A stretch of DNA of 57,323 nucleotides, from contig CAZXLQ010000002.1 in the NCBI GenBank assembly GCA_964641945.1, positions 1-57,323 of the forward strand, written 5' to 3'. The stretch is from an uncultured Clostridia bacterium (GTDB lineage Bacteria; Acidobacteriota; Blastocatellia; UBA7656; JADIYM01). The number at the start of each line of letters is the position of its first letter. The stretch's first letter is position 1. This document shows positions 5,442 to 47,447 of this stretch, piece after piece. The notes under the pieces are model-generated. The model did no database searches and had not been told where the DNA came from. It saw only the letters and a program-made list of their open reading frames with translations. The position numbers were made by a program, and so were the translations under genes.

Positions 5442-5941
5442 CACTCGCCCGCCCACACCCGAGTCGCCTCGAGCGCCTTCACGGCGTCGTCTGTTCGGCC
5501 GGAGCGCACGAGCTCGGAGAACTCCAGATAACCGCGAGAAAGATCGTCGACGCGTTTCGCGTCCGCGGAAATGGCGTGCACGATCTCCATGGCCCGTTCG
5601 TCGTTTCGCACCGATGGCATCGCCGAGATGAGCCGCCCGTTGCTGACCAGCCGGACCGCCGGGCTGTCGACCCGTCGATGGAAGGCCACGATCGCATCCT
5701 CGAGCGCCTCGAGCTCGCGCTCGCGCCAGTTCGACCGCCACAGCGCCCAACCGAAGGCCACGGCCACGGCGACGAACATCGAACGGAACACGACCTGAGT
5801 CGCTCCCGGGTTGAAGACCTCGGCGATGAAGGAACTGGCTCCGAACGGTTCGCCGATGTGGCGATGCATGACGGCGTCGACGAGCCACATGAGCAACCCG
5901 AGCGCGCCTCCGAACACGATTTCCTTGTAGCGCCTGAGCAC
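5441..5941 (-). CDS. Small membrane protein of unknown function, translationally coupled to the sigma54 activator
   Basis: 166 aa with two predicted TM helices followed by a helical cytoplasmic tail. High GC3. It starts 15 nt downstream of the RND pump stop and has an ATGA overlap with the next gene. Confidence 0.6.
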   Translation of the reverse strand: MLRRYKEIVFGGALGLLMWLVDAVMHRHIGEPFGASSFIAEVFNPGATQVVFRSMFVAVAVAFGWALWRSNWRERELEALEDAIVAFHRRVDSPAVRLVSNGRLISAMPSVRNDERAMEIVHAISADAKRVDDLSRGYLEFSELVRSGRTDDAVKALEATRVWAGE

Positions 5942-8900: not shown

Positions 8901-9154
8901 TGCGAACGAACGCGCGTGACGCCGGGCGCCCCATTCATCGCCGTCTCGATCGGATAGGTGACGAGGGACTCGACTTCTTCCGGAGCGAGTCCCTCGGCCT
9001 CCGTGAGAATCGTGACGGTCGGCCGGTTCAGATCCGGCAGGACGTCGATCGGCAGCTTCACCGCCACGTAGCTGCCCCAGACGAGCAGCAGTGCAGCGAC
9101 CGCCACGACGAGCAGCCGGTTGTCGAGCGACCATCGAATGAGCGCGTTGAGCAT
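5957..9154 (-). CDS. CusA/CzcA-family heavy-metal efflux RND transporter (pump 1)
   Basis: 1065 aa. The N-terminus MLNALIRWSLDNRLLVVAVAALLLVWG...LPIDVLPDLNRPTVTILTEAEGLAPEEVESLVTYPIE is typical of the HME-RND family, with a 12-TM architecture. Confidence 0.9.
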   Translation of the reverse strand: MLNALIRWSLDNRLLVVAVAALLLVWGSYVAVKLPIDVLPDLNRPTVTILTEAEGLAPEEVESLVTYPIETAMNGAPGVTRVRSQSGIGLSIVYVEFDWGTDVFKNRQLVSEKLTLAREQLPPGVAPTMGPISSIMGEILLISVSSKSGETDPLEVRSVADWTIRPRLLTIPGVSQVINIGGGVKQYQALVSPQKLAQFGVTIEEVSAALEQSNVNATGGFVDEQSQEYLVRTLGRFYTPEELGQTAVAYRNGTPVLLADVATVEFGPRIKRGDAGANGKPAVIMSVQKQPGASTLELTDTIDAAISDLRRTLPDDIEINPQLFRQAHFINTSIDNILHALRDGSILVVIVLFLFLMNLRTTAITLTAIPLSFVIAFLVFWATGSSINTMTLGGLAVAIGELVDDSIVDIENIFRRIKENRLLAAPRPVIEVIFRASLEVRSSIVYATFIVALVFLPLFALTGVEGRLLAPLGLAYIASLLASLVVSLTVTPVLASFLLPKMKFRDDGGDSWLVRFLKRWDERLLRRTLRNPWKVVATAALLFVVSMAALPFVGTSFLPEFNEGTLTINVFAEPGTSLAESDRIGSIAERLLLEVPDVISTGRRTGRAELDEHAEGVHYTEIDVDLDHDGRPRDEVLADIREKLALIPGVNTSVGQPISHRIDHLQSGVRAQIAVKLFGDDLAQLRSTAEEIRNLMTTVPGAVDVQIEKQVLIPQIRYTIDRTAAARYGVRPGEVAETLQMALNGRRVSQALEGQRRFDVVVRFDDASRGSLDALRAVTIDTPQGTQIPVSAVAAIESLPGPNQVLRENTLRRIVISANVAGRDLGSVVAEMRQRIGAGARLPEGYFVEYGGQFEAQQQATQRLLVLSLFSLIAIFLLLFKALGDWRSALQVLVNVPLALIGAIAALFLTGGVFSVATLVGFVSLIGITSRNGIMMVSHYMHLLREEGEEFSESMIIRGSLERLVPVMMTALIAGLSLLPLILAADQPGKEILHPMAVVLLGGILTSTLLDQLVTPAIFSLYGRKIAERVIRERDGEVRPTAPETGKPHAGSPGAPLDPLPNPGT

Positions 9155-9184
9155 CTTTCTCCCCGAGCAGCGGCGCGTTCGGCG

Positions 9185-10081
9185 CTAGGCGCCGATCTGC
9201 AGGACGAATGGCACCGTGATGACCTTACCGGCACGCTGGAACTGCGCCCACACCTTGTAGAGACCGGCCTTCGGAAACTCGGTGTGCGCCATGACCTGAC
9301 TCGGACTGCCGGCCGCCTCGTGCGTGTTGCCGTGCGACCCGCCGTGATTCATCGCGCCATGGTCCATCCCCCCGGAATGCGCGTCCCCTTGGCCGTCCAT
9401 GTCTCCCGACATCGGATGGGCGTGCAGGAACTCCGAACCATCCTGGCTGATGAGGACGAAGTGGGCGTATTCACCGAGGTACTTCTCGAGGTTCGTGACC
9501 GGGTTGCCGCTGACCGCGTCCTTCACGTCGAAGTACAGCGTCGTGGGAGACCCGGGTTTCAATGCGCCGTCCGGCCGCAGTGTCACCGTGAGTCCATCGA
9601 CCGATTTCACGAGCGACGTATCGGCGACGAGCGCCTCTGGCGCACGTTGCGGTCCTTCGACATTGACCGGGATCGTGTCGACGGTCGCCTTGCCGCCTTC
9701 GGGCTTGTAGTCGGCATACAGCAGATACGGCCCACCGCTCGCGAATGTGTGCGTAACGGTCAGGCTGCCGTCGGCATTGGCCTGCGGGTGAATGTGGCTG
9801 AAATCGGCGAGGTCCTTCGAGACGACGAGCAGGTGCAGGGTCTTTTCGTGGACGACATCGAGGTTCCTGACGACGGCGCCGGAGGCATCCTTGACCGTGA
9901 ACGTAAGCTTGACCGGCTCACCGGCCTTGATGGTTGCCGGCTCCGTTGTCAGCTGCGCCTTCGCGACTCCCGTGGGCGTGGCTTTCTCAGCGGGCGCTCC
10001 GCCGCACGCAATCAACAGGGTCGCTCCACCAGTCAGCGCAACGGTCAGACATCCGATCAACAATCGATTCCCTGTTCGCAT
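9185..10081 (-). CDS. Lipoprotein with two tandem Ig-like (YtkA/FixH-like) domains and a His/Met/Asp-rich loop; putative periplasmic metal binder
   Basis: Start at MRTGNRLLIGCLTVALTGGATLLIACGG (lipobox), preceded by AAGGAG. Two related halves each end in an H-x-HP motif (FSHIHPQ and FLHAHPM). The second half carries HPMSGDMDGQGDAHSGGMDHGAMNHGGSHGNTHE. Confidence 0.65.
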   Translation of the reverse strand: MRTGNRLLIGCLTVALTGGATLLIACGGAPAEKATPTGVAKAQLTTEPATIKAGEPVKLTFTVKDASGAVVRNLDVVHEKTLHLLVVSKDLADFSHIHPQANADGSLTVTHTFASGGPYLLYADYKPEGGKATVDTIPVNVEGPQRAPEALVADTSLVKSVDGLTVTLRPDGALKPGSPTTLYFDVKDAVSGNPVTNLEKYLGEYAHFVLISQDGSEFLHAHPMSGDMDGQGDAHSGGMDHGAMNHGGSHGNTHEAAGSPSQVMAHTEFPKAGLYKVWAQFQRAGKVITVPFVLQIGA

Positions 10082-14739: not shown

Positions 14740-14780
14740 ATCTTGATCCTCCCCCGACTAACGAGAACCTCAGGGACGTA

Positions 14781-14795
14781 GCAAACAACGTGCCG
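14781..14795 (-). promoter_or_regulatory. Sigma54 promoter P1 (GGCACG-TTGT-TTGCT) for the 10-gene RND1 operon
   Basis: The minus strand reads CCGGCACGTTGTTTGCTAC, an exact GG-N10-GC match to the extended consensus. The -12 element lies ~40 nt upstream of the ATG at 14739. Confidence 0.75.
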
Positions 14796-18638: not shown

Positions 18639-18812
18639 TTAAACGTGTCGACGTGGCGCGGCGGACTCCAACACGTCCTCGGGGGCCGGGATGATCTCGG
18701 GCTCGAGCGCGTCGGCGACCTCGTGGACCGGTGCTGCATCGAGGTGCGAGTCCTCGGGCCAGATGAAGTTCTCGTCGTCAAGGGTCATCCTGCATGTCCC
18801 GCACTGTTTCAT
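18639..18812 (-). CDS. Possible 57-aa acidic CxxC protein translationally coupled to the GH57 gene
   Basis: Not in the ORF track (below 60 aa). Sequence is MKQCGTCRMTLDDENFIWPEDSHLDAAPVHEVADALEPEIIPAPEDVLESAAPRRHV. It has an ATGA overlap with the GH57 stop and a strong GC3 bias. Confidence 0.45.
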   Translation of the reverse strand: MKQCGTCRMTLDDENFIWPEDSHLDAAPVHEVADALEPEIIPAPEDVLESAAPRRHV

Positions 18813-21268
18813 GATGACTCCTCTCCTTGGGCAACGGCAGCGTTGCGTGTGACGTTCGAAGTGACCTGTCTCGCATCGTCGACACCTTCATCCTCGCGTT
18901 CGCTGGGGTATCGCGACGCCATCGAGTCGATCACGTCGGCGGCGGGTCGCGCACCCGCGTCGCGAGGCGACTCGCGAGCGGAGTCCGCGTCGCCGACACG
19001 CACCCGCGTCACGCGCGCTTGGCAGCAAGAGTGCGTCTTCGTGCAGCCCTCGTGCTGGCATTCGAACATGAACTCGAGGAGGCTGGCCTCCGCTCCGAAG
19101 GGCCCGAGCACGAAAGAGTATCGACCCCTGCCCGCCATTACGCCGCCTTCGGGCGCGAGGTCCGCGCTCTCGGGTGCCGTGCCGTCGATCATCCAGCTGA
19201 GCCTCCCCGGGCAGTGCGTGCGGATCGTCAGGCGGTCGCGCGGTCCGACGCCGGCGACGGGCCGGCTGTGGGTCCAGACGACCGTGTGCAGCGCGATGTG
19301 CTCGTCGAGACGGCGCGGTGCGGCGGCGCCGAGCGACGCGTAGATCGCTTTCAGATGGCCCCGGTACACCTCGTCGAAGACCTCGTCGCGCCCCGAGTTC
19401 TGATCGTCGCCGTACCACCAGAACCAGTCGCTGCCCTCGGCCATGTAGGCCGAAAGGTAGGCCGACGGCGCGTCGGCCGGGGTCGCGCCGCTTGCGGCGA
19501 GAAACCGCCGCGCTTCGGCCAGGAGCCGCCACGCGCGGTTCTCCTCGTCCTCGCCGATCCACGTTCCGAGGTCGACGCCGGGCCGCGACCCCGCTTCGTC
19601 GATCCACGACCCGGTGAACAGGTCGTAGATTGCGGGCATCCGGTCGATCGGATGCGGCGCGACGCGGCGCAGAGCGTTGCCGCGGATGTACTCGCCGAAC
19701 GTCACGGTCCGCAGCTCGGGATCCCGCTCGAGCAGGTAGTACAGGGCCCGCAGGAACGGCCTGGCGTCCTCGCGGTACGACCCCCACGCGTTCTCGCCGT
19801 CGAGCGCGATCGCGAGGACTCGGTCGCCGGTGTCGCCGACCCGACGAGCGAAGCGCCCCTTCACGTCCGCGACGAATGCGCGAGCGGCGGCTTCGGGATC
19901 GTCGTACCGCCGAAAGTGGAATCCGATCGCGTCCGAGAGCCACGTGTCGCGGAAGTACACACACGGTCGCTCGAGATCGAAGGGGCGGTAGGGCTGGCAC
20001 AAGACGTCCGGAAGGTCGGCGTCGTATCCCCACCGGCCCGACCGCGCCAGGACGCCCTTGTCGGACGCCACCCACTCAATCCCATTTTCTTCGAACAGTG
20101 GAAGGACATCGTGCCCAACCGCGCCCTCCGCGGGCCACATGCCGGTCGGCCGCCGACCGAAGGCCCCCTCGTACCATTCGACGGCGAGCCGCACCTGTGC
20201 CGCCGCGTCTTCGGGGTAGTGGAACCGCAGAGGCAGTTTGGTACCCGGTCTATCCAGGGTCGCCCGATCCGTATCGACCAGCAACGGGAGGATGGGGTGG
20301 AAGAACGGCGTCGTCGAGATCTCGATCTGCCCGCAGTCCTGGAGGTAGCGGTGTAACGGGATGATGGCCTCCATGATCTTGTACTGCTCTTCGACCATCT
20401 CGTCGAGTTCGCTCGTCGTGAAGCCGCGCCCCTGCTCGACGAATCGCCGCACGCTTGCCGTCTCGCCCGTCGCGAGGTGGACGACGCCGTCGCGGAACTC
20501 CTTACCGAACCAGGCGAGGTTGAACCACATCTGCAGGTCGCGCACATCCTGCGCGTCGAAGGCCGCTCCTTCGTGCCGCTGCGCGAACAGCTCCGCGTAG
20601 CGCTCGTGGCCGAGGATCTGGTTGTGCCAGTCGGCGTCGAAGAAGCTCGACAACACGGCTTCACGCTCGGCGTCGTCGAGGAGTTCAGCCGGCTTGAGCG
20701 TGAGGTCGAGGGCACGGTCGGTGGCGCCTCGCTCGACGTAGTCCTCGATCTGCCACGCGAGAGCGGGCGTCAGGTTGATCGTTAGATGCAGATCGGGGTG
20801 CGCCGCGACGAGGTGCGCCATCGAGTAGTAGTCGCGTATCGCGTGTAGCCGGACCCACGGCAGCGCGTAGCTCCCATCCTGAACCGGGTGAAGCTCGTTT
20901 TTGTAAACCGGCTGGTGGTGGTGCCAGAGCATCGCGACGAAGAGCTTCGGCCCGACACGAAACGAGAAGTCCTCGGTCGCCGCGTCGCCGTCGTCGCCGC
21001 GCGCCCGGATGCGGTAGGTCACGTCGTCGCCATCGGCGAATGGCCCGAGGGTCGCAGACCAATAACTGTTCTCGCCGCGATTCTCTCGCCATCCGCATGG
21101 CGCGATGTCGGATCGCAGCCCGCCGTCCGTGCCGCGAACCCTCACCTCCACCCATACCCTTTGCCTCGGCGCGACGGGCCACGTGCCCGCTTGCATGGTC
21201 GCCCTCTCGCCCGCGCTGACCCGCCGCGGCTCTCGCTGAGCATCTGGTGTCGAGTGCCAGACATGCAT
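18809..21268 (-). CDS. Glycoside hydrolase family 57 protein with N- and C-terminal extensions
   Basis: 819 aa. The GH57 core motifs are MLWHHHQPVY..., PWVRLHAIRDYY and TINLTPAL. GGAGGG RBS. It has a ~110-aa N-terminal beta-rich domain and a long C-terminal region. Confidence 0.8.
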   Translation of the reverse strand: MHVWHSTPDAQREPRRVSAGERATMQAGTWPVAPRQRVWVEVRVRGTDGGLRSDIAPCGWRENRGENSYWSATLGPFADGDDVTYRIRARGDDGDAATEDFSFRVGPKLFVAMLWHHHQPVYKNELHPVQDGSYALPWVRLHAIRDYYSMAHLVAAHPDLHLTINLTPALAWQIEDYVERGATDRALDLTLKPAELLDDAEREAVLSSFFDADWHNQILGHERYAELFAQRHEGAAFDAQDVRDLQMWFNLAWFGKEFRDGVVHLATGETASVRRFVEQGRGFTTSELDEMVEEQYKIMEAIIPLHRYLQDCGQIEISTTPFFHPILPLLVDTDRATLDRPGTKLPLRFHYPEDAAAQVRLAVEWYEGAFGRRPTGMWPAEGAVGHDVLPLFEENGIEWVASDKGVLARSGRWGYDADLPDVLCQPYRPFDLERPCVYFRDTWLSDAIGFHFRRYDDPEAAARAFVADVKGRFARRVGDTGDRVLAIALDGENAWGSYREDARPFLRALYYLLERDPELRTVTFGEYIRGNALRRVAPHPIDRMPAIYDLFTGSWIDEAGSRPGVDLGTWIGEDEENRAWRLLAEARRFLAASGATPADAPSAYLSAYMAEGSDWFWWYGDDQNSGRDEVFDEVYRGHLKAIYASLGAAAPRRLDEHIALHTVVWTHSRPVAGVGPRDRLTIRTHCPGRLSWMIDGTAPESADLAPEGGVMAGRGRYSFVLGPFGAEASLLEFMFECQHEGCTKTHSCCQARVTRVRVGDADSARESPRDAGARPAADVIDSMASRYPSEREDEGVDDARQVTSNVTRNAAVAQGEESS

Positions 21269-21283
21269 CGACTGTCCCTCCTC

Positions 21284-21427
21284 TCAGACTCCGAGACTTC
21301 GGCGATTCCACGACGGCATGGGCCTCGTGACCGGCCAACAGATAGATCGACCCGCCGCGACGAGCACGCTGAGCGCGATCGTGCTCCAGGCCGTCGATCC
21401 GATATGCTGTTTGCTGTTTTCCACCAT
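21284..21427 (-). CDS. Possible 47-aa single-TM leader ORF upstream of GH57
   Basis: Sequence is MVENSKQHIGSTAWSTIALSVLVAAGRSICWPVTRPMPSWNRRSLGV. It has GC3 bias, ends inside the GH57 RBS region, and begins ~83 nt downstream of sigma54 promoter P6. The RBS is weak. Confidence 0.3.
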   Translation of the reverse strand: MVENSKQHIGSTAWSTIALSVLVAAGRSICWPVTRPMPSWNRRSLGV

Positions 21428-21509
21428 GACCGTACCTTTGCGGTGGCGAGCCTAAAGCGACCGGCGGTGTGAATCCGGGCCGCGGGGTCGCTCTCGCCGT
21501 ACAGAGTGG

Positions 21510-21524
21510 GCAACTGGCGTGCCG
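21510..21524 (-). promoter_or_regulatory. Sigma54 promoter P6 (GGCACG-CCAG-TTGCC) upstream of the GH57 cluster
   Basis: The minus strand reads GCCGGCACGCCAGTTGCCC, an exact GGCACG-N4-TTGC match. It is intergenic and correctly oriented. Confidence 0.65.
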
Positions 21525-21666
21525 GCGCGCGGCCCGGCGACATCGCGCGAGCATCAGGGGCGCAAACCTTGATGAGCAGGGCGCCACGGGCGGCCTCGTC
21601 CAGATGCCGCGAGGCGCGATCCCAATCCGGGGTGCGGAAAACCGCGCTCCCCGCCGCGAACTATTC

Positions 21667-21720
21667 CGTAAGTTTATATTCTATTTAGATTTACGAGTTT
21701 ATCTTGTGTTTATGTTCGTC
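21667..21720. repeat. AT-rich block with four phased (G/A)TTTA(T/G) boxes (copy A)
   Basis: Sequence is CGTAAGTTTATATTCTATTTAGATTTACGAGTTTATCTTGTGTTTATGTTCGTC, with box spacing 11-14-11. By hand alignment, 46 of 54 positions are identical to the reverse complement of 43712-43765. Confidence 0.6.
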
Positions 21721-21869
21721 TGACGCTCTTGTTATCCGACGCTGGCTTTGACGGACTCAGCGTGCCACTTGTCGCGACGCCAATTGAGCGTTGGCGGAGC
21801 AGCGTTCGGCCCGGAGGCCCGAAGCAGGCGGCTTTCTCGTTTCACAGACGAGAGGCCAAATCCAGATCG

Positions 21870-21885
21870 CGGTACGGCGATTGCC
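21870..21885 (+). promoter_or_regulatory. Sigma54-like promoter retained in the OMF relic (CGGTACG-GCGA-TTGCC), pointing at the LTXXQ gene
   Basis: Correct GG-N10-GC spacing. It is identical in core to the element upstream of OMF 2 (43539-43554). Confidence 0.4.
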
Positions 21886-22127
21886 GAAGAAACGTCGTAC
21901 GCATGTCGATCGCGATCTCGGGGGCGCGCCCCCCAACTGCTTCTTGATGACGTCATCGCGGAGGCACTCGAGCACAACCCGGTGCGAGAACTCTTCAGTC
22001 CCAGAACGGCCAGCAATGCCGAGGAATAACTGATTTAGGAACAGTTATCGTGAATTTAACAACTGCGATGGGATCAATGTACAGAAGGGCGCAAATCATT
22101 CGATCTTGGCAGCGGGCGCGACGGCCG

Positions 22128-22143
22128 TGGCGCTTTACTTGCT
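22128..22143 (+). promoter_or_regulatory. Weaker sigma54-like promoter P3 (TGGCGCT-TTAC-TTGCT) upstream of the LTXXQ gene
   Basis: Correct GG-N10-GC spacing with TGGC and TTGCT. It lies 117 nt upstream of the ATG at 22260 and has two mismatches in the -24 half. Confidence 0.35.
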
Positions 22144-22259
22144 CTTCCGAATGGCGTCTCCGATCCATTGCCTTGTCGTTGTCGGGATGCGCGAGCACGT
22201 TATGTTCGATGTTCCCGCAATCAACAACAGAATAGCCAATGCCCGATAGGAGGTTTGTC

Positions 22260-22799
22260 ATGGAAATCACCGTGTTCCGACGATCCATCGCGACGGTGCT
22301 GCTCGCGATGCTCGTGCCAGCGGCTGTCGTGGCGCAGCACGACAAGCGACCGCCGGCGGCACGCGGAAAGAGCACCTTTCTCGGAGACGGCATGGGTACG
22401 ATCACCCCGAGCCTCATGGAGGTCGCGACGAAAACGAACCTCTTTCTCGCGATCGCCGACCAGATCAGTTTGACCGAGGCGCAGCGCCGCGAGATCACCG
22501 ACATCGTATTTCGATTGCAGCGCGACGCCGGTGAGACGAGGGGCGACCTCGGCGTGGCGCAAGCGGAGTTTCAGCGTATGCTCGGCCGCGACCGAATCGA
22601 CCTCGAGGCGCTCCGAACCAATCTCGCTCAGGTCCGTGCGCTCGAGACCGACCTCGAGTTCCTCACCTTCGAGGCGTTGCTGCGGGCGATCGGCGTCCTG
22701 ACGCACGAGCAGCACCTCCGCGTCATCGGCCTCGCGACGATGCCAGGTCGCGCACAGGCCGCCGCCCCCGTGCGGCCTGGCCCGGACGAATTCCGCTAG
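22260..22799 (+). CDS. LTXXQ-motif periplasmic protein (Spy/CpxP/ZraP family)
   Basis: Start at MEITVFRRSIATVLLAMLVPAAVVAQ, preceded by TAGGAGG. Two LTXXQ motifs are present (SLTEAQRREI and VLTHEQHLRV) in a helical, charged sequence. Confidence 0.75.
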   Translation: MEITVFRRSIATVLLAMLVPAAVVAQHDKRPPAARGKSTFLGDGMGTITPSLMEVATKTNLFLAIADQISLTEAQRREITDIVFRLQRDAGETRGDLGVAQAEFQRMLGRDRIDLEALRTNLAQVRALETDLEFLTFEALLRAIGVLTHEQHLRVIGLATMPGRAQAAAPVRPGPDEFR

Positions 22800-22910
22800 G
22801 ACTCGCGCTCCGGCAGGACTCGTAGCTGTACGCAGAGGCGCGAGCGTCGACGGCAGCGGCGAGCGGGAGTCGCACGCCGACGGCGATGTCCGGACGGGCA
22901 CATTGTCGGG

Positions 22911-22980
22911 GGAGTGCAAGGGCAAGGAACGGACGAGGACGGGTCAACAGTTCTCGCCAATCCGTCGTCGTGTCCACGAT
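22911..22980. repeat. 70-bp direct duplicate of an internal MFS-gene segment
   Basis: About 64 of 70 positions match 24433-24502 by hand alignment (the region encoding DTTTDWR.LL.R.RP.LALAL). It abuts the transposase fragment. Confidence 0.7.
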
Positions 22981-23330
22981 AGGCGCGCTGCGCCTCCTCG
23001 GTCATCTGCCAGTCGCTGATTCGCTTGAGCTGCTTATAGGCAACACCCTGCGTGATCTGGGCCATCGTGTGCAGGCCGATGTTGCAGCCGTGCGCCAACG
23101 TTGCTGCCAGGATCATGCACACGTCTTCGGAATCCCGTCCTCCTCGCTGGGCCGGAGACAGGAAGTGATCGGTGAAGCGCAAGTCGTTATCGACCTCGAT
23201 GAGCAGGTCCGGAAGCCGGCTCGTGCGCATCTGCCTGGTCAGCCATCGTTTCAGGTCGCCCAGCCGTGTTTGCGCCGCTTCGTCCAACGTCTCGGTGGCG
23301 TCGGTGGACAGGCGCCATCTGCCTTTGTCC
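22981..23330 (-). mobile_element. Internal fragment (~116 aa) of a Tn3-family transposase
   Basis: Sequence is ...RLPDLLIEVDNDLRFTDHFL...DSEDVCMILAATLAHGCNIGLHTMAQITQGVAYKQLKRISDWQMTEEAQRA. This resembles the central DDE_Tnp_Tn3 region. It is truncated at both ends by unrelated sequence, and no terminal inverted repeats were recognised. Confidence 0.6.
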
Positions 23331-23748
23331 ACCGATGAGCGACAGCTTTCCAGGCCACATCATTTCCTGCTGTGACGGTGACGATGCGGCGGCTCGACGG
23401 GTCGCCGTTCTGGACGTCGAAGGGGACGATGCTCCCCATCGAGTCGACCTCGAACATCGGCTGAGGCCAGGCTTTCGCTTGCGGAGTGCGAGCCTGCATT
23501 GCATCGAAGCTGCGAGCCATGGCCGCGATCGCGGGGTTGTGCTCGAGCGCGTCATCCACCAGCTCGCGGAGCACCGCGACGGAGTGTGCGGGCACGGAGC
23601 GCTCCGGCACCGGTGCGGCGATATTGATCGAGGGGCGCGGCGCAGGAAGCTCTGCCGAGCTCGACGGCTGCGCCTGCCCGTAAGCGCTCGTGCCGGGAAG
23701 CGTGAGCACGATGAGTACGAGAGCCCTCAACGCCTTCTTCGTATGCAT
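23331..23748 (-). pseudogene. 5'-truncated copy of an OMF gene (N-terminal ~135 aa), interrupted by the transposase fragment
   Basis: GGAGGA RBS and signal peptide MHTKKALRALVLIVLTLPGTSAYGQ. The segment VDDALEHNPAIAAMARSFDAMQARTPQAKAWPQPMFEVDSMGSIVPFDVQNGDPSSRRIVTVT is about 80% identical to OMF 2. A frameshift follows, then QEMMWPGKLSLIG, and homology ends. Confidence 0.7.
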
Positions 23749-23902
23749 GGCATGTCCTCCGGGTTCCTGGGGCCAGGCCGTTCTTCGCTCGAGCCGACGG
23801 CAACTGCCGTGCCAGTCAACGTGGATTCGTGGGCAGTCATCGGTCGGCGCAGTCACGGATTCCCTCGCGAGTTGACGTCCGCTGTTGCGGTCGTTTTCTT
23901 CA

Positions 23903-25138
23903 TCAAGCGAGTCTGGCCTCGCGAGCCCGATCCAGCACGTTCCAGGCGACCATCAATGCGAGCGCGACCAGCAACGCACCACTGAGCAAATACGGCGCGT
24001 CGACATGCCAGATGAAGAGCATACCGCCCAGGAGGGGTCCGATCGCCTGTCCGAGACTGTTGGCGGCGTTCTGAATACCGAGCGACGCCCCGGTACTTCC
24101 TTCTCCGCCGCGCGTCGAGATGAGGGCCGCCAGATTCGGCGCGATGAAAGCCATCCCGAATGCGAGCAATGCGACAAAGGCGAAGACAAAGAACGATGTC
24201 CGAGCTGTCGCAAGCAACGCGATGCCGGTACCCATCAAGGCAAAGCCAATGCCAATCTGGAGCATCTCGCCAACTCGTCCGGCAAGGAATCCAACAGCGC
24301 CTGCCTGAAAGACGGTCATCACCAGGCCGCACACGACAAAGATGTATCCGACCTCGACGGGTCCGAAATCGAACTTCGCCTTCGCGTAGAGCGCGATCGT
24401 CCCCTCGAACATCGTCAGGGCAAGTTGTCCGGCGAGTGCAAGGGCAAGGAGCGGACGAAGACGGATTAACAGTCCTCGCCAATCCGTCGTCGTGTCCACG
24501 ATCGGCTCATCCGCCGGTCCTGCTGGCCTGGACTCCGGCAGCCAGCGCAATGCCGCAAACAGCGTCACAAGACCTAACACCGCTGCCGCAAAAAACGGAA
24601 TCGAAAAGGCGTCAAACGTTAAGTGGCCGATGCTCCATCGCAAATGAATCTCACTGCGAGACAGCAATCCGCCAAGTGCTGGTCCGACAACGACGCCGAG
24701 ACTCACCGCCGTGCCGAGCCACGCCATTCCGCGACTTCGCTGCTCTGGCGTCGTCATATCGGCAACGTAGGCCGCAGAAACCGGCAATGTCGCCGACGAC
24801 AATACTCCTCCGACGATTCGCGCTGCGTACAAGAGCCACAGCGACGTGGACAAACCGAACATCACTTGCGCCACAACGTAGCCCGCGATGCCAATGAGAA
24901 TCAGCGGTCTCCTGCCGATGCGATCCGACCAGCGTCCCCACAAAGGTGCGAAGACGAGTTGAGCGAGCGCGTACACACCAGTCAAAAGGCCGACGTGCAT
25001 CACCATTGACTGTTGCGTCGATCCCTCTTCCAACGCGAGGCGCTCCACGTAGAAGGGCAGCACGGGCATCGTAATGCCCAGGCCGATCATGACGACGAAC
25101 AGGCAGGCGAGAAGTACGAAGAGGTGCTTGTTGATCAC
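23903..25138 (-). CDS. MFS transporter (DHA1/tetracycline-efflux-like, 12 TM)
   Basis: 411 aa. Motif A-like sequence is GRWSDRIGRRPLILIG. The hydropathy pattern is typical of the family. Confidence 0.85.
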   Translation of the reverse strand: MINKHLFVLLACLFVVMIGLGITMPVLPFYVERLALEEGSTQQSMVMHVGLLTGVYALAQLVFAPLWGRWSDRIGRRPLILIGIAGYVVAQVMFGLSTSLWLLYAARIVGGVLSSATLPVSAAYVADMTTPEQRSRGMAWLGTAVSLGVVVGPALGGLLSRSEIHLRWSIGHLTFDAFSIPFFAAAVLGLVTLFAALRWLPESRPAGPADEPIVDTTTDWRGLLIRLRPLLALALAGQLALTMFEGTIALYAKAKFDFGPVEVGYIFVVCGLVMTVFQAGAVGFLAGRVGEMLQIGIGFALMGTGIALLATARTSFFVFAFVALLAFGMAFIAPNLAALISTRGGEGSTGASLGIQNAANSLGQAIGPLLGGMLFIWHVDAPYLLSGALLVALALMVAWNVLDRAREARLA

Positions 25139-25265
25139 GCCGAGGTCCTTCCGTGCGATGCGCTACAGGCGGTGACACGCACGGGCCGAGTCGCATCAGG
25201 CTCGCGACACCTGAGGACCGTTGGCGCGTTGCTTCTTGTCCAATTGCCGGCAAGGGGCTGTGGAC

Positions 25266-25280
25266 GCAACCCTCGTGCCG
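25266..25280 (-). promoter_or_regulatory. Sigma54 promoter P5 (GGCACG-AGGG-TTGCG) for the MFS transporter
   Basis: The minus strand reads CGGCACGAGGGTTGCGTC, an exact GGCACG-N4-TTGC match ~125 nt upstream of the ATG at 25138. Confidence 0.7.
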
Positions 25281-29614: not shown

Positions 29615-29630
29615 GGCAATCAGCGTGCCA
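29615..29630 (-). promoter_or_regulatory. Sigma54 promoter P2 (TGGCACG-CTGA-TTGCC) for the ATPase operon
   Basis: The minus strand reads GATGGCACGCTGATTGCCC, a full consensus match. The -12 element lies ~225 nt upstream of the ATG at 29391. Confidence 0.75.
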
Positions 29631-30024
29631 TCAGCCGAAGACGCATCGATGCCGCGCGTTCGTTGCTGCAGATGAGACCTGCGCCAGCATGAATGGATGC
29701 GTTCGTTGCACAACATCCGTACAGGTGCACCAAAGCAGGACACTCGTCAAATGCCAAATGAATGCCGCAGGATGGAGAGTCCGACACTTGCCTTGTGTTC
29801 CGGACGAGCGACGCACAGTTCATGCCAAAGACCTCGCCGGGGAGGCCGCCCCTCCCGAAAGGACCTGAATCCGGAGCACGAGTGACGGGCTATCCTCGAC
29901 GTTTTGGGTCGGCGGCGGATTGAAATGAACGTGGCCGGAAGCGGCGGGCCGGATCCATGCCAGCACGCTGGCCCGAATCGAACTCCGGCCCTGCGGGAGC
30001 TCTCGCGGCCGCACCTTTCCTCGA

Positions 30025-30038
30025 GGCACGTGAATTGC
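30025..30038 (+). promoter_or_regulatory. Sigma54 promoter P7 (GGCACG-TGAA-TTGCG) for the Met/His-rich protein operon
   Basis: The plus strand reads GAGGCACGTGAATTGCGCT, an exact GGCACG-N4-TTGC match ~185 nt upstream of the ATG at 30222 and divergent from P2. Confidence 0.7.
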
Positions 30039-30221
30039 GCTAGGGACTGCAGGTAGGTGCGACTCCGTCGCCGTTATTCGAGACAGTCATTGCCCGGCGT
30101 CGACTGGAAAACAGCGACCGACGCGAACGGAGTGAAACGCGCCCCACGAGACCCGGTGCATGAGCGCCGAAACACGGAATTCGAGCGTGCTCGTCCACGA
30201 GCACAGAAGGAACGACCAATC

Positions 30222-41214: not shown

Positions 41215-41233
41215 CGTGCGCCTCCCGATCCGA

Positions 41234-42136
41234 CTATTCCTTCCTGTCCCGTTGCGGCTCCGCGTCCATTCGCGACCAGATCGCGAGAACGGACGGGACA
41301 TACGCCAGCGTTTCGGCCGGCAGGAGCCGTCGCCTCGACATCTCGTCAAAGTCCCGGACTCCGGTCCGGCGAATGACGCTCCAGACTCTTCCCTCACCTG
41401 CGTTGTAGGCTGCGAGCGCGAGCTTCCAGTCGCCGAACTGGCCGTGCAGATCCCGCAAATACCGGGCTGCAGCTCGCGTCGCAAGCGCAGTGTGGGTCCG
41501 ATGATCGACCGCACCGTCAACCGAGAGCCCGTATCGGCGCGCAGTCGCCGGCATGAACTGCCACACACCGCGAGCGCCCTTCGGCGAGAGCGCCATCGGG
41601 TTGAACCCGCTCTCGACATACGCGACCGAGAGCAGGGCAAGCGGCACTCGCTCCTCGGCGAGTATCGGGCCGAGCGACACGCGCGCGGCGGCGAGTCGCG
41701 TGTGAAGCGCCCGGGGCAAGGGGCGCGCGTCGGGAAACACGAACCGCTCGGCAAGAGGCGTGGGCGACAAGGCCTCACGTTCAAGGGCGATCGCCTTTGC
41801 AAGTTCCCCGGCGAGGCTGTCGACGCTCGCGGGACCGAGCTCGGCGGCGATGTTCTCCGCAAATGCGAGAGAGGTGCTGGCCGCAACCATGTCGCCGCGC
41901 TTTCGCGCCACGACGCCTTCCGAGACGTGACGCGACGCTTCGATCACCTGCTCCGCGGTTCGAGCGCTTGCCTCGATCGAGCTCTCGATCCGCGCCATGG
42001 CGAGCGATACCGGATCGGTGGCGGGCTCCGGGGACGGCGCCTGCCATGCACCCGCCTCCGAGCCGAACGCGAACACGATGGCCAGGAGTGCGAGGATCGC
42101 TCGTTCGATCCGGAGAGACTTTCGGGAATCCGTCAT
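41234..42136 (-). CDS. Lytic transglycosylase (SLT domain) protein
   Basis: The catalytic region is LLSVAYVESGFNPMALSPKGARGVWQFMPATARRYGL, followed by AAYNAGEGRV. An N-terminal signal/anchor is present. It overlaps the OMF stop by 4 nt. Confidence 0.8.
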   Translation of the reverse strand: MTDSRKSLRIERAILALLAIVFAFGSEAGAWQAPSPEPATDPVSLAMARIESSIEASARTAEQVIEASRHVSEGVVARKRGDMVAASTSLAFAENIAAELGPASVDSLAGELAKAIALEREALSPTPLAERFVFPDARPLPRALHTRLAAARVSLGPILAEERVPLALLSVAYVESGFNPMALSPKGARGVWQFMPATARRYGLSVDGAVDHRTHTALATRAAARYLRDLHGQFGDWKLALAAYNAGEGRVWSVIRRTGVRDFDEMSRRRLLPAETLAYVPSVLAIWSRMDAEPQRDRKE

Positions 42137-43464
42137 CGGAGTAGCCTGCCGACGAGTGGCTCGATCATGGCAATGGCCTTCTCGAGGTTCGCCAGCTGTT
42201 CGTAGTAGCCGAGCTCGTAGGTAAAGAGCGTCTTCAGGTCGTCGAGCAGCATCAGGAAGTCGATGCCACCGGTTTCGTACGCGGCGATCCCGGACTCGAG
42301 CGTGAGCGTCGCCTGCGGTATCGTGGCCGTCGCGTAGAGATCCGCGAGCTTCTCGGACGTGAGCGCCATGAGATAGGCGTCCTTGATCTTGAAGAAGAGC
42401 AATGCCTGGGCGCTCTCGAGCCGCTTGCGTTCCGCTGCCATTGCCGAGGAGGCTTCGGCGACTGCCGGACGCTGTCTCTGCCAGAAGTAGAGAGGGAGCT
42501 TCACGCCGAACATCACGCCGTGCATTTCGGGCATGCCGGGCCGGTTGACGTAGGTGTAGGCGACGGACATGTCCGGGTAGAACTGCTTCTCGGCGAGCCG
42601 CAGGGCGAACTGCTCACGGTCGATGCGGCTTCTCTGCTGCCTGAGGATCGGGCTTGCCTGCGCCATTTCGTTGAGCAGATCGAGCGTGAAGTCGATCGGC
42701 CGCCGGACGATGTCCGCCGGCGCACCGAGCGGCGAGTCCGGGTCGCGGTACATCAACACGTTGAGCCGGGCCGCGGCCGACGCCTGGCGCTGCTCGAGCA
42801 TCGTGAGCATCTCGGTCATCCGCGTGACCTCGAGCTGCGCCTTCAGCAAGTCCTGCTGCATGCCCTTGCCGACGGCATACCGAGCCTCGGCGATCTTCGT
42901 CACGCGCTCCATCAGCAGCCGGTTCTTCGTGACGGTCTCGATGGCTTTCGCCAGGTAAGCAAGGTCGAAGTAGACGGCCTTGACGTCGGCGACGACCATT
43001 CGGCGAGACTGCTCGAAGGCCCACCACTCGGCTTCGGCCTCGGAGCCGGCCATCTTGCCCATCAGCGCGAGCTTGCCGGGCCACATGATCTCCTGTGTGA
43101 CGGTCACGATGCGGCCGCTCGACGGGTCGCCGTTCTGGACGTCGAACGGAACGATGCTGCCCATCGAACCGACCTCGAGCATCGGCTCGGGCCAGGCCTT
43201 GGCCTGCGGCACGCGAGCCGTCATGGCGTCGAAGTTGCGCGCCATCGCCGCGATCTCGGGGTTGTGCTCGAGCGCCTCGGCGATGACGTGATCAAGAAGC
43301 AGTTGCGGGGGTGCGTCCGGCGCGGAGCCGGCGCGAGCTTCTGCGCGAGGCGGTGTCGGCGTCGCGGACCCCGTCTCCATTCTTCCCTGCGCGAAAACAC
43401 TGCCGTGGGAAAGAACCACGGTCGCCACTGACACGGCGGTGAGTACTCGGTTCGTTCGGTTCAT
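42133..43464 (-). CDS. TolC/CusC-family outer-membrane efflux factor (OMF 2)
   Basis: Start at MNRTNRVLTAVSVATVVLSHGSVFAQG, preceded by GGAAGGA. It has a typical two-repeat OEP sequence. Confidence 0.85.
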   Translation of the reverse strand: MNRTNRVLTAVSVATVVLSHGSVFAQGRMETGSATPTPPRAEARAGSAPDAPPQLLLDHVIAEALEHNPEIAAMARNFDAMTARVPQAKAWPEPMLEVGSMGSIVPFDVQNGDPSSGRIVTVTQEIMWPGKLALMGKMAGSEAEAEWWAFEQSRRMVVADVKAVYFDLAYLAKAIETVTKNRLLMERVTKIAEARYAVGKGMQQDLLKAQLEVTRMTEMLTMLEQRQASAAARLNVLMYRDPDSPLGAPADIVRRPIDFTLDLLNEMAQASPILRQQRSRIDREQFALRLAEKQFYPDMSVAYTYVNRPGMPEMHGVMFGVKLPLYFWQRQRPAVAEASSAMAAERKRLESAQALLFFKIKDAYLMALTSEKLADLYATATIPQATLTLESGIAAYETGGIDFLMLLDDLKTLFTYELGYYEQLANLEKAIAMIEPLVGRLLR

Positions 43465-43538: not shown

Positions 43539-43554
43539 AGCAATCGCCGTACCG
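43539..43554 (-). promoter_or_regulatory. Sigma54-like promoter P4 (CGGTACG-GCGA-TTGCT) for the OMF2-cus2 operon
   Basis: The minus strand reads GCGGTACGGCGATTGCTC, with correct GG-N10-GC spacing, ~75 nt upstream of the ATG at 43464. The same element is conserved in the relic copy at 21870-21885. Confidence 0.55.
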
Positions 43555-43711
43555 CAATTCTGATCCGGCTTCTCGACTGGACTTCGAGCAGTTCGCCAGC
43601 ATCGTGCCTAAAGACCAGGCGCTGCTCCGGGCCGGGCGCAATTGGCGTTGCCTGTTCGACTTCCGCTGCATTCGAGTCCGCAACAGACAGCGTCGGACAG
43701 CAAGAATGCCA

Positions 43712-43765
43712 GACGAACATAAATACAACTTAAACTCGCAAATCTAAACGCAACATAAACTTACG
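43712..43765. promoter_or_regulatory. AT-rich block with four phased TAAA(C/T) boxes (copy B) between OMF 2 and the divergent response-regulator gene
   Basis: It is the reverse complement of copy A with 8 mismatches in 54. Box spacing of 11-14-11 bp is preserved. Candidate functions are an OmpR-family binding array, a DNA bend, or the promoter of the divergent two-component operon. Confidence 0.4.
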
Positions 43766-43939
43766 AAATAGTCCGCGCCACGGTGAGTCATTCTTCTCAT
43801 CGAGCGAATCGCGAGGTGCGAGGTTGGGCCCGGTTGGCATCACGTGGTGAATTCCAACGTCCGAACTCAACCTGCTGGCGAAACGGCGGTAGACTGGTCG
43901 TCTTCCCAAATTCAGGACACCCGGGATGGACAGGATCGG

Positions 43940-44632
43940 ATGCGAGTTCTCGTTGTCGAAGACCAGAAAAACGTCGCACGCTTTCTCGCAAAGGGTCTGC
44001 GCGAACAGGCCTATGCCGTCGATGTCGCCAGAGATGGCCTGGACGGGTTCGCCATGGCCGATGCCACGCAATACGACATCATCATCCTCGACCTCATGTT
44101 GCCCGGAATCGACGGCTTCGAAGTCTGCCGGCGCCTTCGCGCCCGTGGCTCGGAAACGCCGATCCTGATGCTCACGGCTCGGGACGATCTGAGCTCGAGA
44201 GTCGAGGGCCTCGATACGGGAGCGGATGACTACCTGACGAAGCCGTTCGATTTCGACGAGTTGCTCGCTCGAATGCGCGCCCTGCTGCGCCGAGGGTCTC
44301 GCGAGTACCGGCCGCCGTCGATCTCGGTCTCAGACCTCGAGCTCGATACGACAACGCACGGAGTTCGGCGCGCGGGGCGCGAGATTGCGCTCACCGCGAA
44401 GGAGTTCGCCCTGATCGAATACTTCCTGCGTCATCCTGGACGGCCGATCAGCCGGGTCGAGATCGCAGAGAACGTGTGGGACGAGTCGTTCGATCCGTTT
44501 TCGAACACGATCGAGGTCTACATTGCGCGCCTCCGAAAGAAGATCGACGGAGAGTCTGCCGTGAAGCTCATTCACACCCGACGCGGCGTTGGCTACGTGC
44601 TCGAGCCACGCGGCGAGGCGGAGGAGGCGTGA
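43940..44632 (+). CDS. OmpR/PhoB-family response regulator (CusR/CopR-like)
   Basis: Start at MRVLVVEDQKNVARFLAKGL. The REC domain has DLMLPGIDG. The winged-helix C-terminus is LTAKEFALIEYFLRHPGRPISR...IEVYIARLRKKI...IHTRRGVGY. Confidence 0.9.
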   Translation: MRVLVVEDQKNVARFLAKGLREQAYAVDVARDGLDGFAMADATQYDIIILDLMLPGIDGFEVCRRLRARGSETPILMLTARDDLSSRVEGLDTGADDYLTKPFDFDELLARMRALLRRGSREYRPPSISVSDLELDTTTHGVRRAGREIALTAKEFALIEYFLRHPGRPISRVEIAENVWDESFDPFSNTIEVYIARLRKKIDGESAVKLIHTRRGVGYVLEPRGEAEEA

Positions 44633-46167
44633 CGGCGCGTCGCGCCGGTCTCTTCGGCACCATTCGAGCGCGCCTCGTCGCGCTCAGTGTCGGGGTGCTC
44701 GCCGTCTCACTCGCACTCTTCGGCTACTTCTCGTACGCCGTGTTCTCGTACTCGCTCTGGCAACGCCACGACGCGGGACTCGAGGCGACGGTCGACACGG
44801 TTGCAACCGCATTCGAGACGGGCATCAGGGTCGAGAAGGGCGACGAGCTCGAAGCGGCGCACCACATGCTCAACGAGCTGAGGTTCCCGAGCCGCAGGAT
44901 TGGCGTGTACACGCTCGACGGCAAGCCCTTCCCTCGCGAGCGCTCGAAACCCGACGACCCGCACCACGCACACGGACCCGAGGTCGATCTTTCGGAGTCT
45001 GAGATCGTTTCGCTCGTCCGCGAGTACGGCCTCGACGAAAGTCTCGGCAAGGCCGTTTTGCTCACGCGCGAAAAGGAACACGGCGCGGTGCGGATATGCC
45101 TGGAAGGGTTTGGTTCGACGACGGGCAGCAGGTACGTGATCGTGGTGGAGGAATCGAACGCGGACGTTGCGGCGACGATCGCGCTGCTCCGGAATGCGCT
45201 CGCCGTCGCCGTGCCGTTCTTCCTCATCGTTGCGTGTGTGGCCGGCTGGTTTCTCGCCGAGCGCAGCCTCGCACCGATTGCCGCGATGTCGGAGCGCGCC
45301 CGGACGATTGGTGAGACGAATCTCGATGCCAGGCTGCCCGTTGCGAACGAACGAGACGAGCTCGGCGAGCTCGCTCTCGTCTTCAACGAGCTGCTCGACC
45401 GGCTCGAGCGCGCGTTCGGCCAGCTCGAACAGGCCTACGGCCAGATGCGGCAGTTCATCGCCGACGCCTCGCACGAGCTCCGGTCACCGTTGGCGGCGGT
45501 TCGCGGCGAAGTACAGGTTGCGCTCAAGCGTCCCCGCGACGAGGCCGAGTACCGCGAATCGCTCGACGTCATCCACGACGAAGCGAGACACATGTCGAGG
45601 ATCGTGGAGGATCTGTTCATGCTCGCCCGCGCAGACGCCGGCGAGCGTGTGGTCAATCGCGTTCCCCTCTATCTCGACGAGCTCGTCGTCGAGTGCTGTC
45701 GCATCGTTCGACCTTTGGCTGAAGAGCGTGGCGTTGCATTCACGGTGGAGCCGGTCAATGGCGAGATCGAGGTCGTTGGCGACGAGGTGCTCCTGCGCCG
45801 GGCGGTATTGAACCTGCTCGACAACGCCGTGAAATACACGGAGTCAGGCGGGGCGGTCCGCGTCGCCGTGATTCGCGATGATGACGATGTCAGGGTAGAC
45901 GTCTCGGACACAGGCGTCGGGGTACTTCCCGAGGATGTCGAGCGGATTTTCGAGCGCTTCTATCGCGTCGACAAGGCTCGTTCACGCTCGGACGGCGGCG
46001 CTGGCCTCGGGCTCTCGATTGTCCGCTGGGCCGTCGAGGCCCATGGCGGTTCCGTTTCGGTTCAGAGCGAACTCGGCCGCGGCAGTACCTTCTCGATCCG
46101 GTTGCCTGTCGATCCGGCGCCGCGACATGGCCCAACCAAGATCAAGGAGACGATGGCGGACGCGTAG
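44629..46167 (+). CDS. Sensor histidine kinase (CusS/CopS-like: TM-periplasmic-TM-HAMP-HisKA-HATPase)
   Basis: GTG start overlaps the regulator stop (GTGA). The H-box is FIADASHELRSPLAAV, and the N and G boxes are LLDNAVKYT, DTGVGV and GGAGLGLSIV. Confidence 0.85.
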   Translation: MTARRAGLFGTIRARLVALSVGVLAVSLALFGYFSYAVFSYSLWQRHDAGLEATVDTVATAFETGIRVEKGDELEAAHHMLNELRFPSRRIGVYTLDGKPFPRERSKPDDPHHAHGPEVDLSESEIVSLVREYGLDESLGKAVLLTREKEHGAVRICLEGFGSTTGSRYVIVVEESNADVAATIALLRNALAVAVPFFLIVACVAGWFLAERSLAPIAAMSERARTIGETNLDARLPVANERDELGELALVFNELLDRLERAFGQLEQAYGQMRQFIADASHELRSPLAAVRGEVQVALKRPRDEAEYRESLDVIHDEARHMSRIVEDLFMLARADAGERVVNRVPLYLDELVVECCRIVRPLAEERGVAFTVEPVNGEIEVVGDEVLLRRAVLNLLDNAVKYTESGGAVRVAVIRDDDDVRVDVSDTGVGVLPEDVERIFERFYRVDKARSRSDGGAGLGLSIVRWAVEAHGGSVSVQSELGRGSTFSIRLPVDPAPRHGPTKIKETMADA

Positions 46168-47042: not shown

Positions 47043-47447
47043 ATGACTACCTGTTCCCCACGTTCTGAATGGTCTCGTGCGACTCTGCACGGCTGGCTCG
47101 CAATCGTCTTGCTCGTGATTGCGGTCGTCGATCTCGGCACGACCCTTCCATGCTGCGCCGAGGACTTCGGACTCCCGGTATGCGCCGCTGACTCGGGAAG
47201 CCCGATCGCAGCCGGACGTGGATTCGAGCAGGCGCACGAGCAAGAGTGTCTGCCGTCCTCGGACGAGAGGTCGACGGATCATCCTGTCACCGATTCGGAT
47301 GGCTGCTTCTGTTGCGCGCTCGGAACGCTTGCCATACTGCCGGCCGCCGAACAGCCTTCCGAATTCAAGCCGGCACTCGAGCCTCGTGCCGTGACTCTCC
47401 CGACTTCGCCGCCGAGCAGTCCTTTCCGACCTCCGCGAATCGCCTGA
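47043..47447 (+). CDS. Small Cys-rich membrane-anchored protein of unknown function heading the RND3 operon
   Basis: 134 aa from the internal ATG, with a TM helix (LHGWLAIVLLVIAVVDLG). Cys clusters are LPCCAEDFGLPVC, ECLP and DGCFCCA. The C-terminus is FRPPRIA. Its GC3 is lower than the neighbours'. Confidence 0.5.
   Translation: MTTCSPRSEWSRATLHGWLAIVLLVIAVVDLGTTLPCCAEDFGLPVCAADSGSPIAAGRGFEQAHEQECLPSSDERSTDHPVTDSDGCFCCALGTLAILPAAEQPSEFKPALEPRAVTLPTSPPSSPFRPPRIA

Follow-up and report, generated by a model that had tools for sequence, protein, structure and literature searches.

Whether a promoter that has lost its gene is still in use, and for which neighbour, is the question raised by a non-coding interval on contig CAZXLQ010000002.1 (GenBank assembly GCA_964641945.1) of an uncultured bacterium. 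The window, i.e., the complete stretch of 57,323 nt that was analyzed, has a GC content of 65% and is a metal-resistance island by Pfam and NCBIfam matches; its source organism turns up repeatedly in metagenomes of wastewater, sludge, and compost, and its named relatives are Blastocatellia/Acidobacteriota. Between a GH57 gene (18809–21268, minus strand) and a gene for an LTXXQ-type periplasmic protein lies a relic of an outer-membrane factor (OMF) gene, related to the intact gene OMF2 of the same window (Table 1). An earlier note on this DNA had proposed that the sigma54-like promoter kept in the relic now drives the LTXXQ gene. In our reading, to which we give a probability of about 55%, the relic would be part of the fossil of a divergent unit whose AT-rich box mainly serves the leftward side, and the LTXXQ gene would most likely be transcribed from a second sigma54-like element closer to its start (the proximal element).

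The relic of the promoter, the leader, and the first codons of an OMF2-type gene is genuine. When 21400–22400 was compared with the window by blastn, 21655–21928 (+) matched 43777–43496 (−) with 72% identity over 284 columns (E = 3.7e-35), and 21922–21980 (+) matched 43318–43259 (−) with 90% identity over 60 columns (E = 1e-16). Significant similarity thus reaches beyond the AT-rich block and bears out the earlier note, which had described 21653–21981 as an inverted, diverged paralogue of the OMF2 upstream region. The note had put the loss in the relic at about 180 bp, including the ribosome-binding site (RBS), the ATG, and the signal peptide; the OMF2 sequence between both matches that is missing here (43495–43319, with all three features) measures 177 bp. 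Residues 53–69 of OMF2 (PPQLLLD.VIAEALEHNP) were recovered by tblastn (94% over 17 aa), the match ending at codon 69, i.e., after EALEHNP as read before, and the AT-rich block, the dyad, and the sigma54-like motif are indeed retained where the note had located them. Homology to a functional gene, with the start codon, the RBS, and most of the gene body gone, identifies the interval as a pseudogene-type relic. The paralogy with OMF2 therefore stands, but the closest relative is the upstream region of an OMF2 orthologue from another locus (L022; 81%), not the window's own OMF2 (72%). As the relic spacer, too, is nearer to L022 (82%) than to the OMF2 copy (64%), the relic is not a recent copy of OMF2. 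Compared part by part with the latter, the coding remnant is 90% identical, the box 86% (54/63), and the leader/spacer 64%, which contradicts the earlier statement that the AT block is better conserved than the coding remnant.

Like other gene remnants with retained regulatory DNA, the relic combines 5′ homology with a missing start, RBS, and signal peptide and a truncated body, and its neighbours include pieces of other genes, among them a transposase fragment. It differs from such remnants in that every recognisable cis motif is still intact, and in that the box and its left flank have diverged less between two lineages than has the non-coding DNA around them. The spacer that follows the coding remnant (21982–22201) had no relatives by blastn or tblastx against all loci and the window. 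An open reading frame (ORF) at 21748–22029, considered as a new small protein, was rejected, since it has no Pfam match and starts upstream of the predicted transcription start.

To characterize the retained regulatory DNA, the upstream regions of OMF2 orthologues (92%, 91%, and 75% protein identity; L020/L021, L022, L023, L024, and L025) were aligned together with the two copies of the window and a third copy, from the sister lineage L011. The AT-rich box was the sole upstream sequence conserved across all aligned copies, the spacers of distant copies being ~40% identical. Its profile scored 56–61 bits in eight of eight copies and found nothing comparable elsewhere; the window holds two copies (0 expected by chance), to which the pair pattern GTTTA-N6-RTTTA is confined within the 57 kb. 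Every box unit contains a pair of RTTTA half-sites with 11-bp spacing (GTTTA-N6-RTTTA; 21672 and 21697). In five functional copies, 41 of the 63 box columns are invariant, none of which is changed in the relic. The rightward element of the relic (CGGTAC-GGCGA-TTGC) shows two mismatches to TGGCAC-N5-TTGC and keeps GG at −24 and GC at −12 at the exact 10-nt spacing; it is identical in OMF2, L020, and L022, and the sigma54 17-mer equals that of L020/L022. At the aligned position, L023–L025 carry the canonical TGGCAT-N5-TTGC (variants TGGCAT-GGCGG-TTGC and TGGCAT-CCAGG-TTGC). Distances are similarly stable across copies: 86–93 bp separate the −24 element from the ATG, and the box lies at positions expected for an upstream enhancer (~80–250 bp, in either orientation), 200–210 bp from the rightward −24 element (seven copies) and 144–146 bp from the leftward one (four copies: relic, L011, L024, and L025). 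These canonical elements in the 75% orthologues and the fixed geometry uphold the earlier assignment of CGGTAC-N5-TTGC to sigma54, and we see in them a clear phylogenetic footprint of a predicted sigma54 promoter coupled to an upstream element. A scan of the relic and OMF2 regions for sigma70 promoters detected none.

A sigma54 activator and a CusR-type regulator are both candidates for the protein binding the box. Transcribed in the opposite direction to OMF2, and diverging from it, are the genes of a heavy-metal two-component system, an OmpR-family regulator of the CusR/CopR type (TIGR01387, 261 bits) and a kinase (TIGR01386, 299.5 bits, above cutoff). The box might be the operator of this regulator for sigma70-type promoters, e.g., in autoregulation of the regulator–kinase pair, with the sigma54 enhancer located elsewhere. 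Its four RTTTA half-sites form two pairs of tandem direct repeats with 11-bp spacing, which is the OmpR/PhoB geometry, and not a dyad-symmetric activator site; a weak CGTAA/TTACG dyad is not conserved. Direct half-sites at 11 bp are typical of OmpR-family regulators, and dyads, bound through a Fis-type HTH, are usual for sigma54 activators. The window, L020/L021, and L022 all have a heavy-metal regulator–kinase pair in divergent orientation to the box. Furthermore, an RNA contig over the regulator 5′ region begins 51 nt away from the edge of the box (43815; all RNA data are Logan contigs of mixed-community runs, unstranded and of low depth). However, the regulator gene adjoins the box at three loci and is absent at four, the box occurring without it in the relic/L011, L023–L025, and a further contig with a 75% orthologue (P0019). 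The box-to-sigma54 distance is also conserved across diverged spacers, and neither region yielded a sigma70-type promoter. We therefore consider this operator reading rather unlikely. With the cusRS-cusCFBA, copRS, and czcRS systems, the OMF2 locus shares a cztR/silR/copR-type regulator and a cztS/silS/copS-type kinase divergent from a cluster of OMF, membrane fusion protein (MFP; with HMBD), and resistance–nodulation–division (RND) genes, as well as a conserved box in the intergenic region. It differs in that its efflux promoter is, judged by the orthologues, probably of the sigma54 type and in that the box lies ~180–240 bp upstream of the predicted start; presumably, the box is also unlike the E. 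coli CusR box.

The relic is larger than first reported and extends over 21284–21981. On its left side, a second sigma54 element points toward a DUF2933-like pseudogene and the GH57 gene; this element is canonical in L011 (TGGCAC-N5-TTGC) and in L024/L025 (TGGCAT-N5-TTGC). The pseudogene has a frameshift in common with L011 and, in the window, an extra 100-bp deletion at ~21308 (a blastn gap), while the L011 reading frame matches PF11666 (DUF2933; E = 1.7e-11). Since the P0019 contig carries an intact DUF2933 gene (−), 518 bp, and an OMF gene (+), we read 21284–21981 as the probable fossil of a complete divergent unit, with a DUF2933 gene to the left and the OMF remnant to the right, each behind a predicted sigma54 promoter, and the box ~170–180 bp from both promoters. 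A marginal box-like profile match was found in L016 (1009–1048, E = 0.005), ~210 bp upstream of a DUF2933 gene, as might be expected if DUF2933 promoters, too, were served by the box.

Table 1. Positions of the features in the window (strand: +, −, or. for undirected; L numbers are loci used for comparison).
Feature	Position	Strand	Remarks
DUF2933-like pseudogene	21284..21427	−	ATG 21427; six-frame reading
Leftward sigma54 element CGGCAC-GCCAG-TTGC	21509..21524	−	146 bp from box edge; toward DUF2933 pseudogene and GH57
GC-rich palindrome GGGGTGCGGAAAACCGCGCTCCCC	21629..21652	.	Immediately left of box; also in L011, L024, L025
AT-rich box	21660..21722	+	Two tandem 25-bp units; putative enhancer or regulator-binding array
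Dyad TCCGAC-N11-CGGAC	21735..21756	.	Kept in close copies only, not in 75% orthologues
Rightward sigma54 −24/−12 element CGGTACGGCGATTGC (relic promoter)	21870..21884	+	Predicted start ~21896
Leader remnant	21885..21930	+	Ends at 177-bp deletion junction ~21926–21930, GC-rich microhomology
OMF codons 53–69 remnant PPQLLLDDVIAEALEHNP	21931..21981	+	tblastn; no in-frame start codon or RBS
Orphan spacer	21982..22201	+	Absent from L011, L015, L016
Proximal sigma54-like element TGGCGC-TTTAC-TTGCT	22128..22143	+	117 bp before LTXXQ ATG; in orphan spacer
Native upstream 58 bp of LTXXQ	22202..22259	+	Common to L011; RBS AGGAGG 22248–22253
LTXXQ (Spy/CpxP/ZraP-like) periplasmic protein gene	22260..22799	+	179 aa, signal peptide, LTEAQ and LTHEQ
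Tn3-family transposase internal fragment	22796..23332	−	~aa 534–636 of 954; NF033527 E = 2.8e-18, PF01526 E = 2.8e-14
Second, independent OMF2-like 5′ fragment	23350..23748	−	aa 4–128, 50% identity, tblastn E = 3.6e-30
Sigma54-like element TGGCACGGCAGTTGCC	23799..23814	−	In front of truncated OMF fragment, directly after MFS gene
OMF2 gene	42133..43464	−	First gene of OMF-SLT-x-MFP(HMBD)-RND-multicopper oxidase cluster
OMF2 sigma54 element	43539..43554	−	90 bp before ATG 43464
Functional-copy box upstream of OMF2	43710..43772	−	Same profile
Heavy-metal two-component system	43940..46167	+	Divergent from OMF2; regulator 43940–44632, kinase 44629–46167

Which side of this fossil is under constraint can be judged from the sister lineage. 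Common to the window and L011 (92% identity) are the GH57 flank, the DUF2933 pseudogene, the leftward promoter, and the box plus 70 bp (window 21308–21793); in L011, a 3.6-kb integrase/extracytoplasmic function (ECF)/VWA cassette then follows, and homology to the window returns 58 bp ahead of the LTXXQ ATG (22202) and lasts until 22909. The segment 21794–22201, comprising the rightward promoter, the OMF remnant, and the proximal element, is therefore specific to the window lineage. Its place is taken in L011 by 6350–9943, where a short gene for a tyrosine recombinase is accompanied by those for an ECF sigma factor, a protein of 129 aa, and a VWA protein, and by decayed remnants of YHS and GATase; the breakpoint adjoins the integrase gene. 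Within the shared part, the block 21597–21722 is identical at 121/126 positions, compared with 209/250 in flanking non-coding DNA (Fisher p = 3.6e-4), and it diverges less than the synonymous rate of neighbouring genes (dS 0.09–0.13). All four relic-specific box substitutions fall into variable columns (p = 0.012). Change along the relic branch is nevertheless about equal in box (4/63) and spacer (11/145), and part of this branch predates the loss of the operon, so that intactness alone is no proof of present function. As L011 has no rightward but a canonical leftward promoter, conserved function is more plausibly directed leftward, to the GH57 row, than toward LTXXQ. The earlier argument from constraint to re-use by LTXXQ is thereby undermined: window and L011 both keep the leftward promoter, which would account for the conservation of the box between them.

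The same data bear on the view that 21284–21981 is non-functional debris whose motifs are intact through recent decay. Flanking genes that are pseudogenes or fragments, mosaic surroundings with a Tn3 fragment, and a box substitution rate on the relic branch close to that of the spacer would all be expected of such debris. The significantly better conservation of 21597–21722, below even the synonymous rate, would not, nor would the retention of a leftward sigma54 element that is canonical in L011. In addition, RNA contigs at 21203–21481 (X29 and X30) end just inside the predicted leftward start at ~21497 and fit transcription from there. Inert debris is thus an improbable explanation.

On the rightward side, the question is how the LTXXQ gene is transcribed. 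Its protein scores 26.9 bits against PF13801 (cutoff 29.2) and has no NCBIfam match, orthologues are annotated as Spy/CpxP family, and a dN/dS of 0.29 against L011 indicates purifying selection. Upstream partners elsewhere are an ECF sigma factor, an anti-sigma-like protein, and a VWA protein (L016), or YHS and GATase (L015). The LTXXQ module common to L011 comprises 22202–22909 only; as purifying selection persists and the native operon context is lost, the gene must be transcribed from something non-native. One candidate is the proximal element, which the earlier note had considered the weaker of the two; with one mismatch to TGGCAC-N5-TTGCW, compared with two for the relic element, it is actually nearer to the consensus.

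The other candidate is the relic promoter, 376 bp before the LTXXQ ATG (22260). Activated via the box, it would drive LTXXQ from ~21896 through a ~365-nt leader and wire the chaperone into the efflux regulon. Box and −24/−12 element are fully intact, with the four box substitutions confined to variable columns as described, and the helical face is kept, the 200-bp distance equalling 19.05 helical turns compared with 20.0 for 210 bp in the nearest relative. No terminator-like site was predicted in 21200–23000, and the gene has lost its native promoter context while being under purifying selection. Moreover, in the Blastocatellia metagenome-assembled genomes L027 and L028, genes for an MFP, an RND protein, and an SLT-fusion protein are followed by LTXXQ with 30-bp gaps; with such co-transcription in relatives, an efflux–chaperone logic would be ancestral. 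Against this stand the closer and better match at the proximal element, the retention of LTXXQ in L011, 3.6 kb away, despite the loss of the rightward promoter, and the equal pace of box and spacer, by which intactness may be mere recency. Furthermore, 21790–22250 is held by one unambiguous RNA run, compared with nine for 21405–21761. A relic driving LTXXQ, as suggested in the earlier note, is therefore possible but unsupported and less likely than transcription from the proximal element, and we regard it as doubtful. In L027 (3605–6519) and L028 (3701–6525), the LTXXQ homologue follows a Na/H-exchanger–SLT fusion gene within the MFP-RND efflux operon, which suggests a native functional link between the LTXXQ chaperone family and RND metal efflux.

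The earlier note had also suggested that promoter capture would recreate a ZraPSR-like logic. In E. coli/Salmonella, ZraR controls the divergent sigma54 promoters of zraSR and zraP (PMC4987338). The locus resembles zraP-zraSR of E. coli/Salmonella in that an LTXXQ-type periplasmic protein gene follows a −24/−12 promoter in a metal-stress context, and in that the central upstream element of the fossil module lies between two divergent sigma54 promoters. However, no ZraSR-like sigma54 activator/kinase was found beside LTXXQ, whose neighbours are GH57, the Tn3 fragment, the OMF fragment, and a major facilitator superfamily (MFS) gene, and OMF2 neighbours an OmpR-family regulator instead. A sigma54 activator/kinase pair is encoded at 2929–5888, behind another OMF-MFP-RND operon; its activator gene (4038–5888), the nearest one, is 16 kb off, and we count its presence in the window in favour of our reading; rpoN is not encoded in the window. 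Further differences are that the native box partners are DUF2933 and an OMF efflux operon and not LTXXQ, that the box is built of direct repeats, and that the LTXXQ protein stays under the PF13801 cutoff without an NCBIfam match.

Several points weigh against the reading that the box mainly serves the leftward side and that LTXXQ depends on the proximal element. The latter is present in a single lineage and hence without comparative support, and the direct half-sites at 11 bp are not the usual target of a sigma54 activator. Moreover, an abundant transcript (21400/21450–21760) over the box and the leftward promoter is not explained by our model. Contigs of at least nine unambiguous RNA libraries from different studies contain the corresponding segment (21399–21761), which overlaps the box, the palindrome, and the leftward element. 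Its left ends cluster at 21447–21452 and its right ends at 21742–21761; one library contains an adapter-flanked 113-nt insert (21507–21619) at a depth of 9.7, and a sigma70-like TTGCTG-N16-TACCTT lies at 21411–21438. Folding of 21447–21761 and 21507–21619 on both strands gave z-scores of −0.97 to +0.89, i.e., no sign of a structured RNA, and Rfam had no match on either box-region copy. Possibly, this ~300-nt transcript over 21450–21760 is a regulatory RNA of a new kind, overlapping with the enhancer. The leader between relic and LTXXQ is covered only by doubtful RNA libraries (X10, X13, and X5) and one short contig (X6). Missing leader RNA is weak evidence, since sigma54 metal-inducible promoters are silent without inducer. 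At OMF2, an RNA contig (X7, 43310–43548) ends at the sigma54 element, and four runs leave the box without coverage. Another RNA hot spot, at 22540–23190, spans the LTXXQ 3′ half and the transposase fragment (X4, X6, X7, and X8), the LTXXQ 5′ half being seldom covered by RNA contigs; it could represent an antisense or read-through transcript.

Taking these points together, we still favour the divergent-unit reading with an essentially leftward box. In relatives with the intact unit, the box would be an enhancer-type binding array serving both divergent sigma54 promoters, one toward DUF2933 at 146 bp and one at ~205 bp that reads through a ~90-nt leader into OMF-SLT-x-MFP-RND. In the window lineage, the OMF operon would have been lost except for codons 53–69, which remain after the 177-bp internal deletion and a truncation, and the DUF2933 gene would have decayed to a pseudogene. 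Mobile-element activity probably scrambled the locus, leaving behind the fragment of a Tn3 transposase gene as well as another truncated OMF gene. The box and both −24/−12 elements are, in sequence, still intact. The leftward promoter, feeding GH57 and the genes beyond, is most likely what keeps the box conserved today. LTXXQ would have been cut from its native operon at 22201/22202 and would most likely be transcribed from the proximal element, to which the relic may add read-through from ~21896 or for which it may act as a distant enhancer.

The relic belongs to known kinds of element, namely gene/promoter relics and sigma54 enhancer–promoter modules, and in itself shows no more than the ordinary decay of DNA in a metal-resistance island prone to rearrangement. 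Comparison of the loci suggests that, in uncultured Acidobacteriota (Blastocatellia-like), sigma54 promoters serve the Cus/Czc-like OMF-MFP-RND operons and are coupled to an AT-rich box of 63 bp, not described before, at a fixed distance of ~205 bp, even beside a CusR-type, sigma70-style regulator. That the orphaned enhancer and sigma54 promoters have been exapted, coupling LTXXQ (via the relic promoter, or with the box as a distant enhancer of the proximal element) and the GH57-FtrD-MacB row to the metal-efflux regulon, is unlikely; if true, it would be regulatory rewiring through operon decay, and if the relic did feed LTXXQ, promoter capture by deletion would have recreated the efflux–chaperone co-regulation of relatives. 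Nature offers here a case in which the lifetime of orphaned enhancers and promoters, and their possible re-use, can be followed.

Searches for further copies of the box gave no additional candidates apart from the marginal match in L016. Scans of genome contigs and of metagenome contigs with the box core TTTAGATTTNCGAGTTTANNTTGT returned chance matches only (Thioploca, Patescibacteria, and L019; unrelated AT-rich genomes), and an nhmmer profile detected no degenerate version of the box ahead of the proximal LTXXQ element or ahead of other sigma54-like sites. A plasmid search had no match. Sigma54-like motifs occur at 14780–14795 (−), 29615–29630 (−), 25265–25280 (−), 30024–30039 (+), and 47098–47150 (+), where they precede the OMF1 operon, a P-type ATPase gene, an MFS gene, and other metal genes, none with an AT-rich box. 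Sigma54 thus seems, from these motifs, to be the common promoter type of the island; a literature search on sigma54-dependent metal efflux in Acidobacteria returned nothing relevant.

Rearrangement is evident on the far side of LTXXQ as well. Many metagenome assemblies break or end at ~23011, within the Tn3 fragment. The second OMF2-like fragment has its signal peptide intact and is truncated by the transposase fragment (inverted repeat I5); the order MFS to OMF at this site is that of an intact operon in L026. An 89-nt piece of the MFS gene (24418–24506) is copied as a direct repeat (89% identity) at 22896–22984. Left of the box, the pattern GGGG-N4-GAAAA...CGTAAG is seen at 21629–21673 as well as in L024 (523–565) and L025 (489–531), and we take it to resemble a Tn3-family terminal inverted repeat, i.e., an end of 38–48 bp with the form GGGG...TAAG. 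If 21629–21673 were such an end, the box and the OMF operon would be transposon cargo, which would go with this resemblance, the transposase fragment, and a resolvase gene beside the kinase in L020/L021. Yet no inverted partner was found in the window, the exact pattern is limited to L024/L025, and the segment is homologous in all copies, even those with regulator–kinase genes on the other side, which makes a cargo origin very unlikely.

In the OMF2 cluster, a long ORF (40456–41886, within 40456–42136 on the minus strand) without Pfam match is probably a wrong frame, since at orthologous loci the OMF and MFP genes are separated by one gene with an SLT domain (~295 aa) and one of 252 aa.

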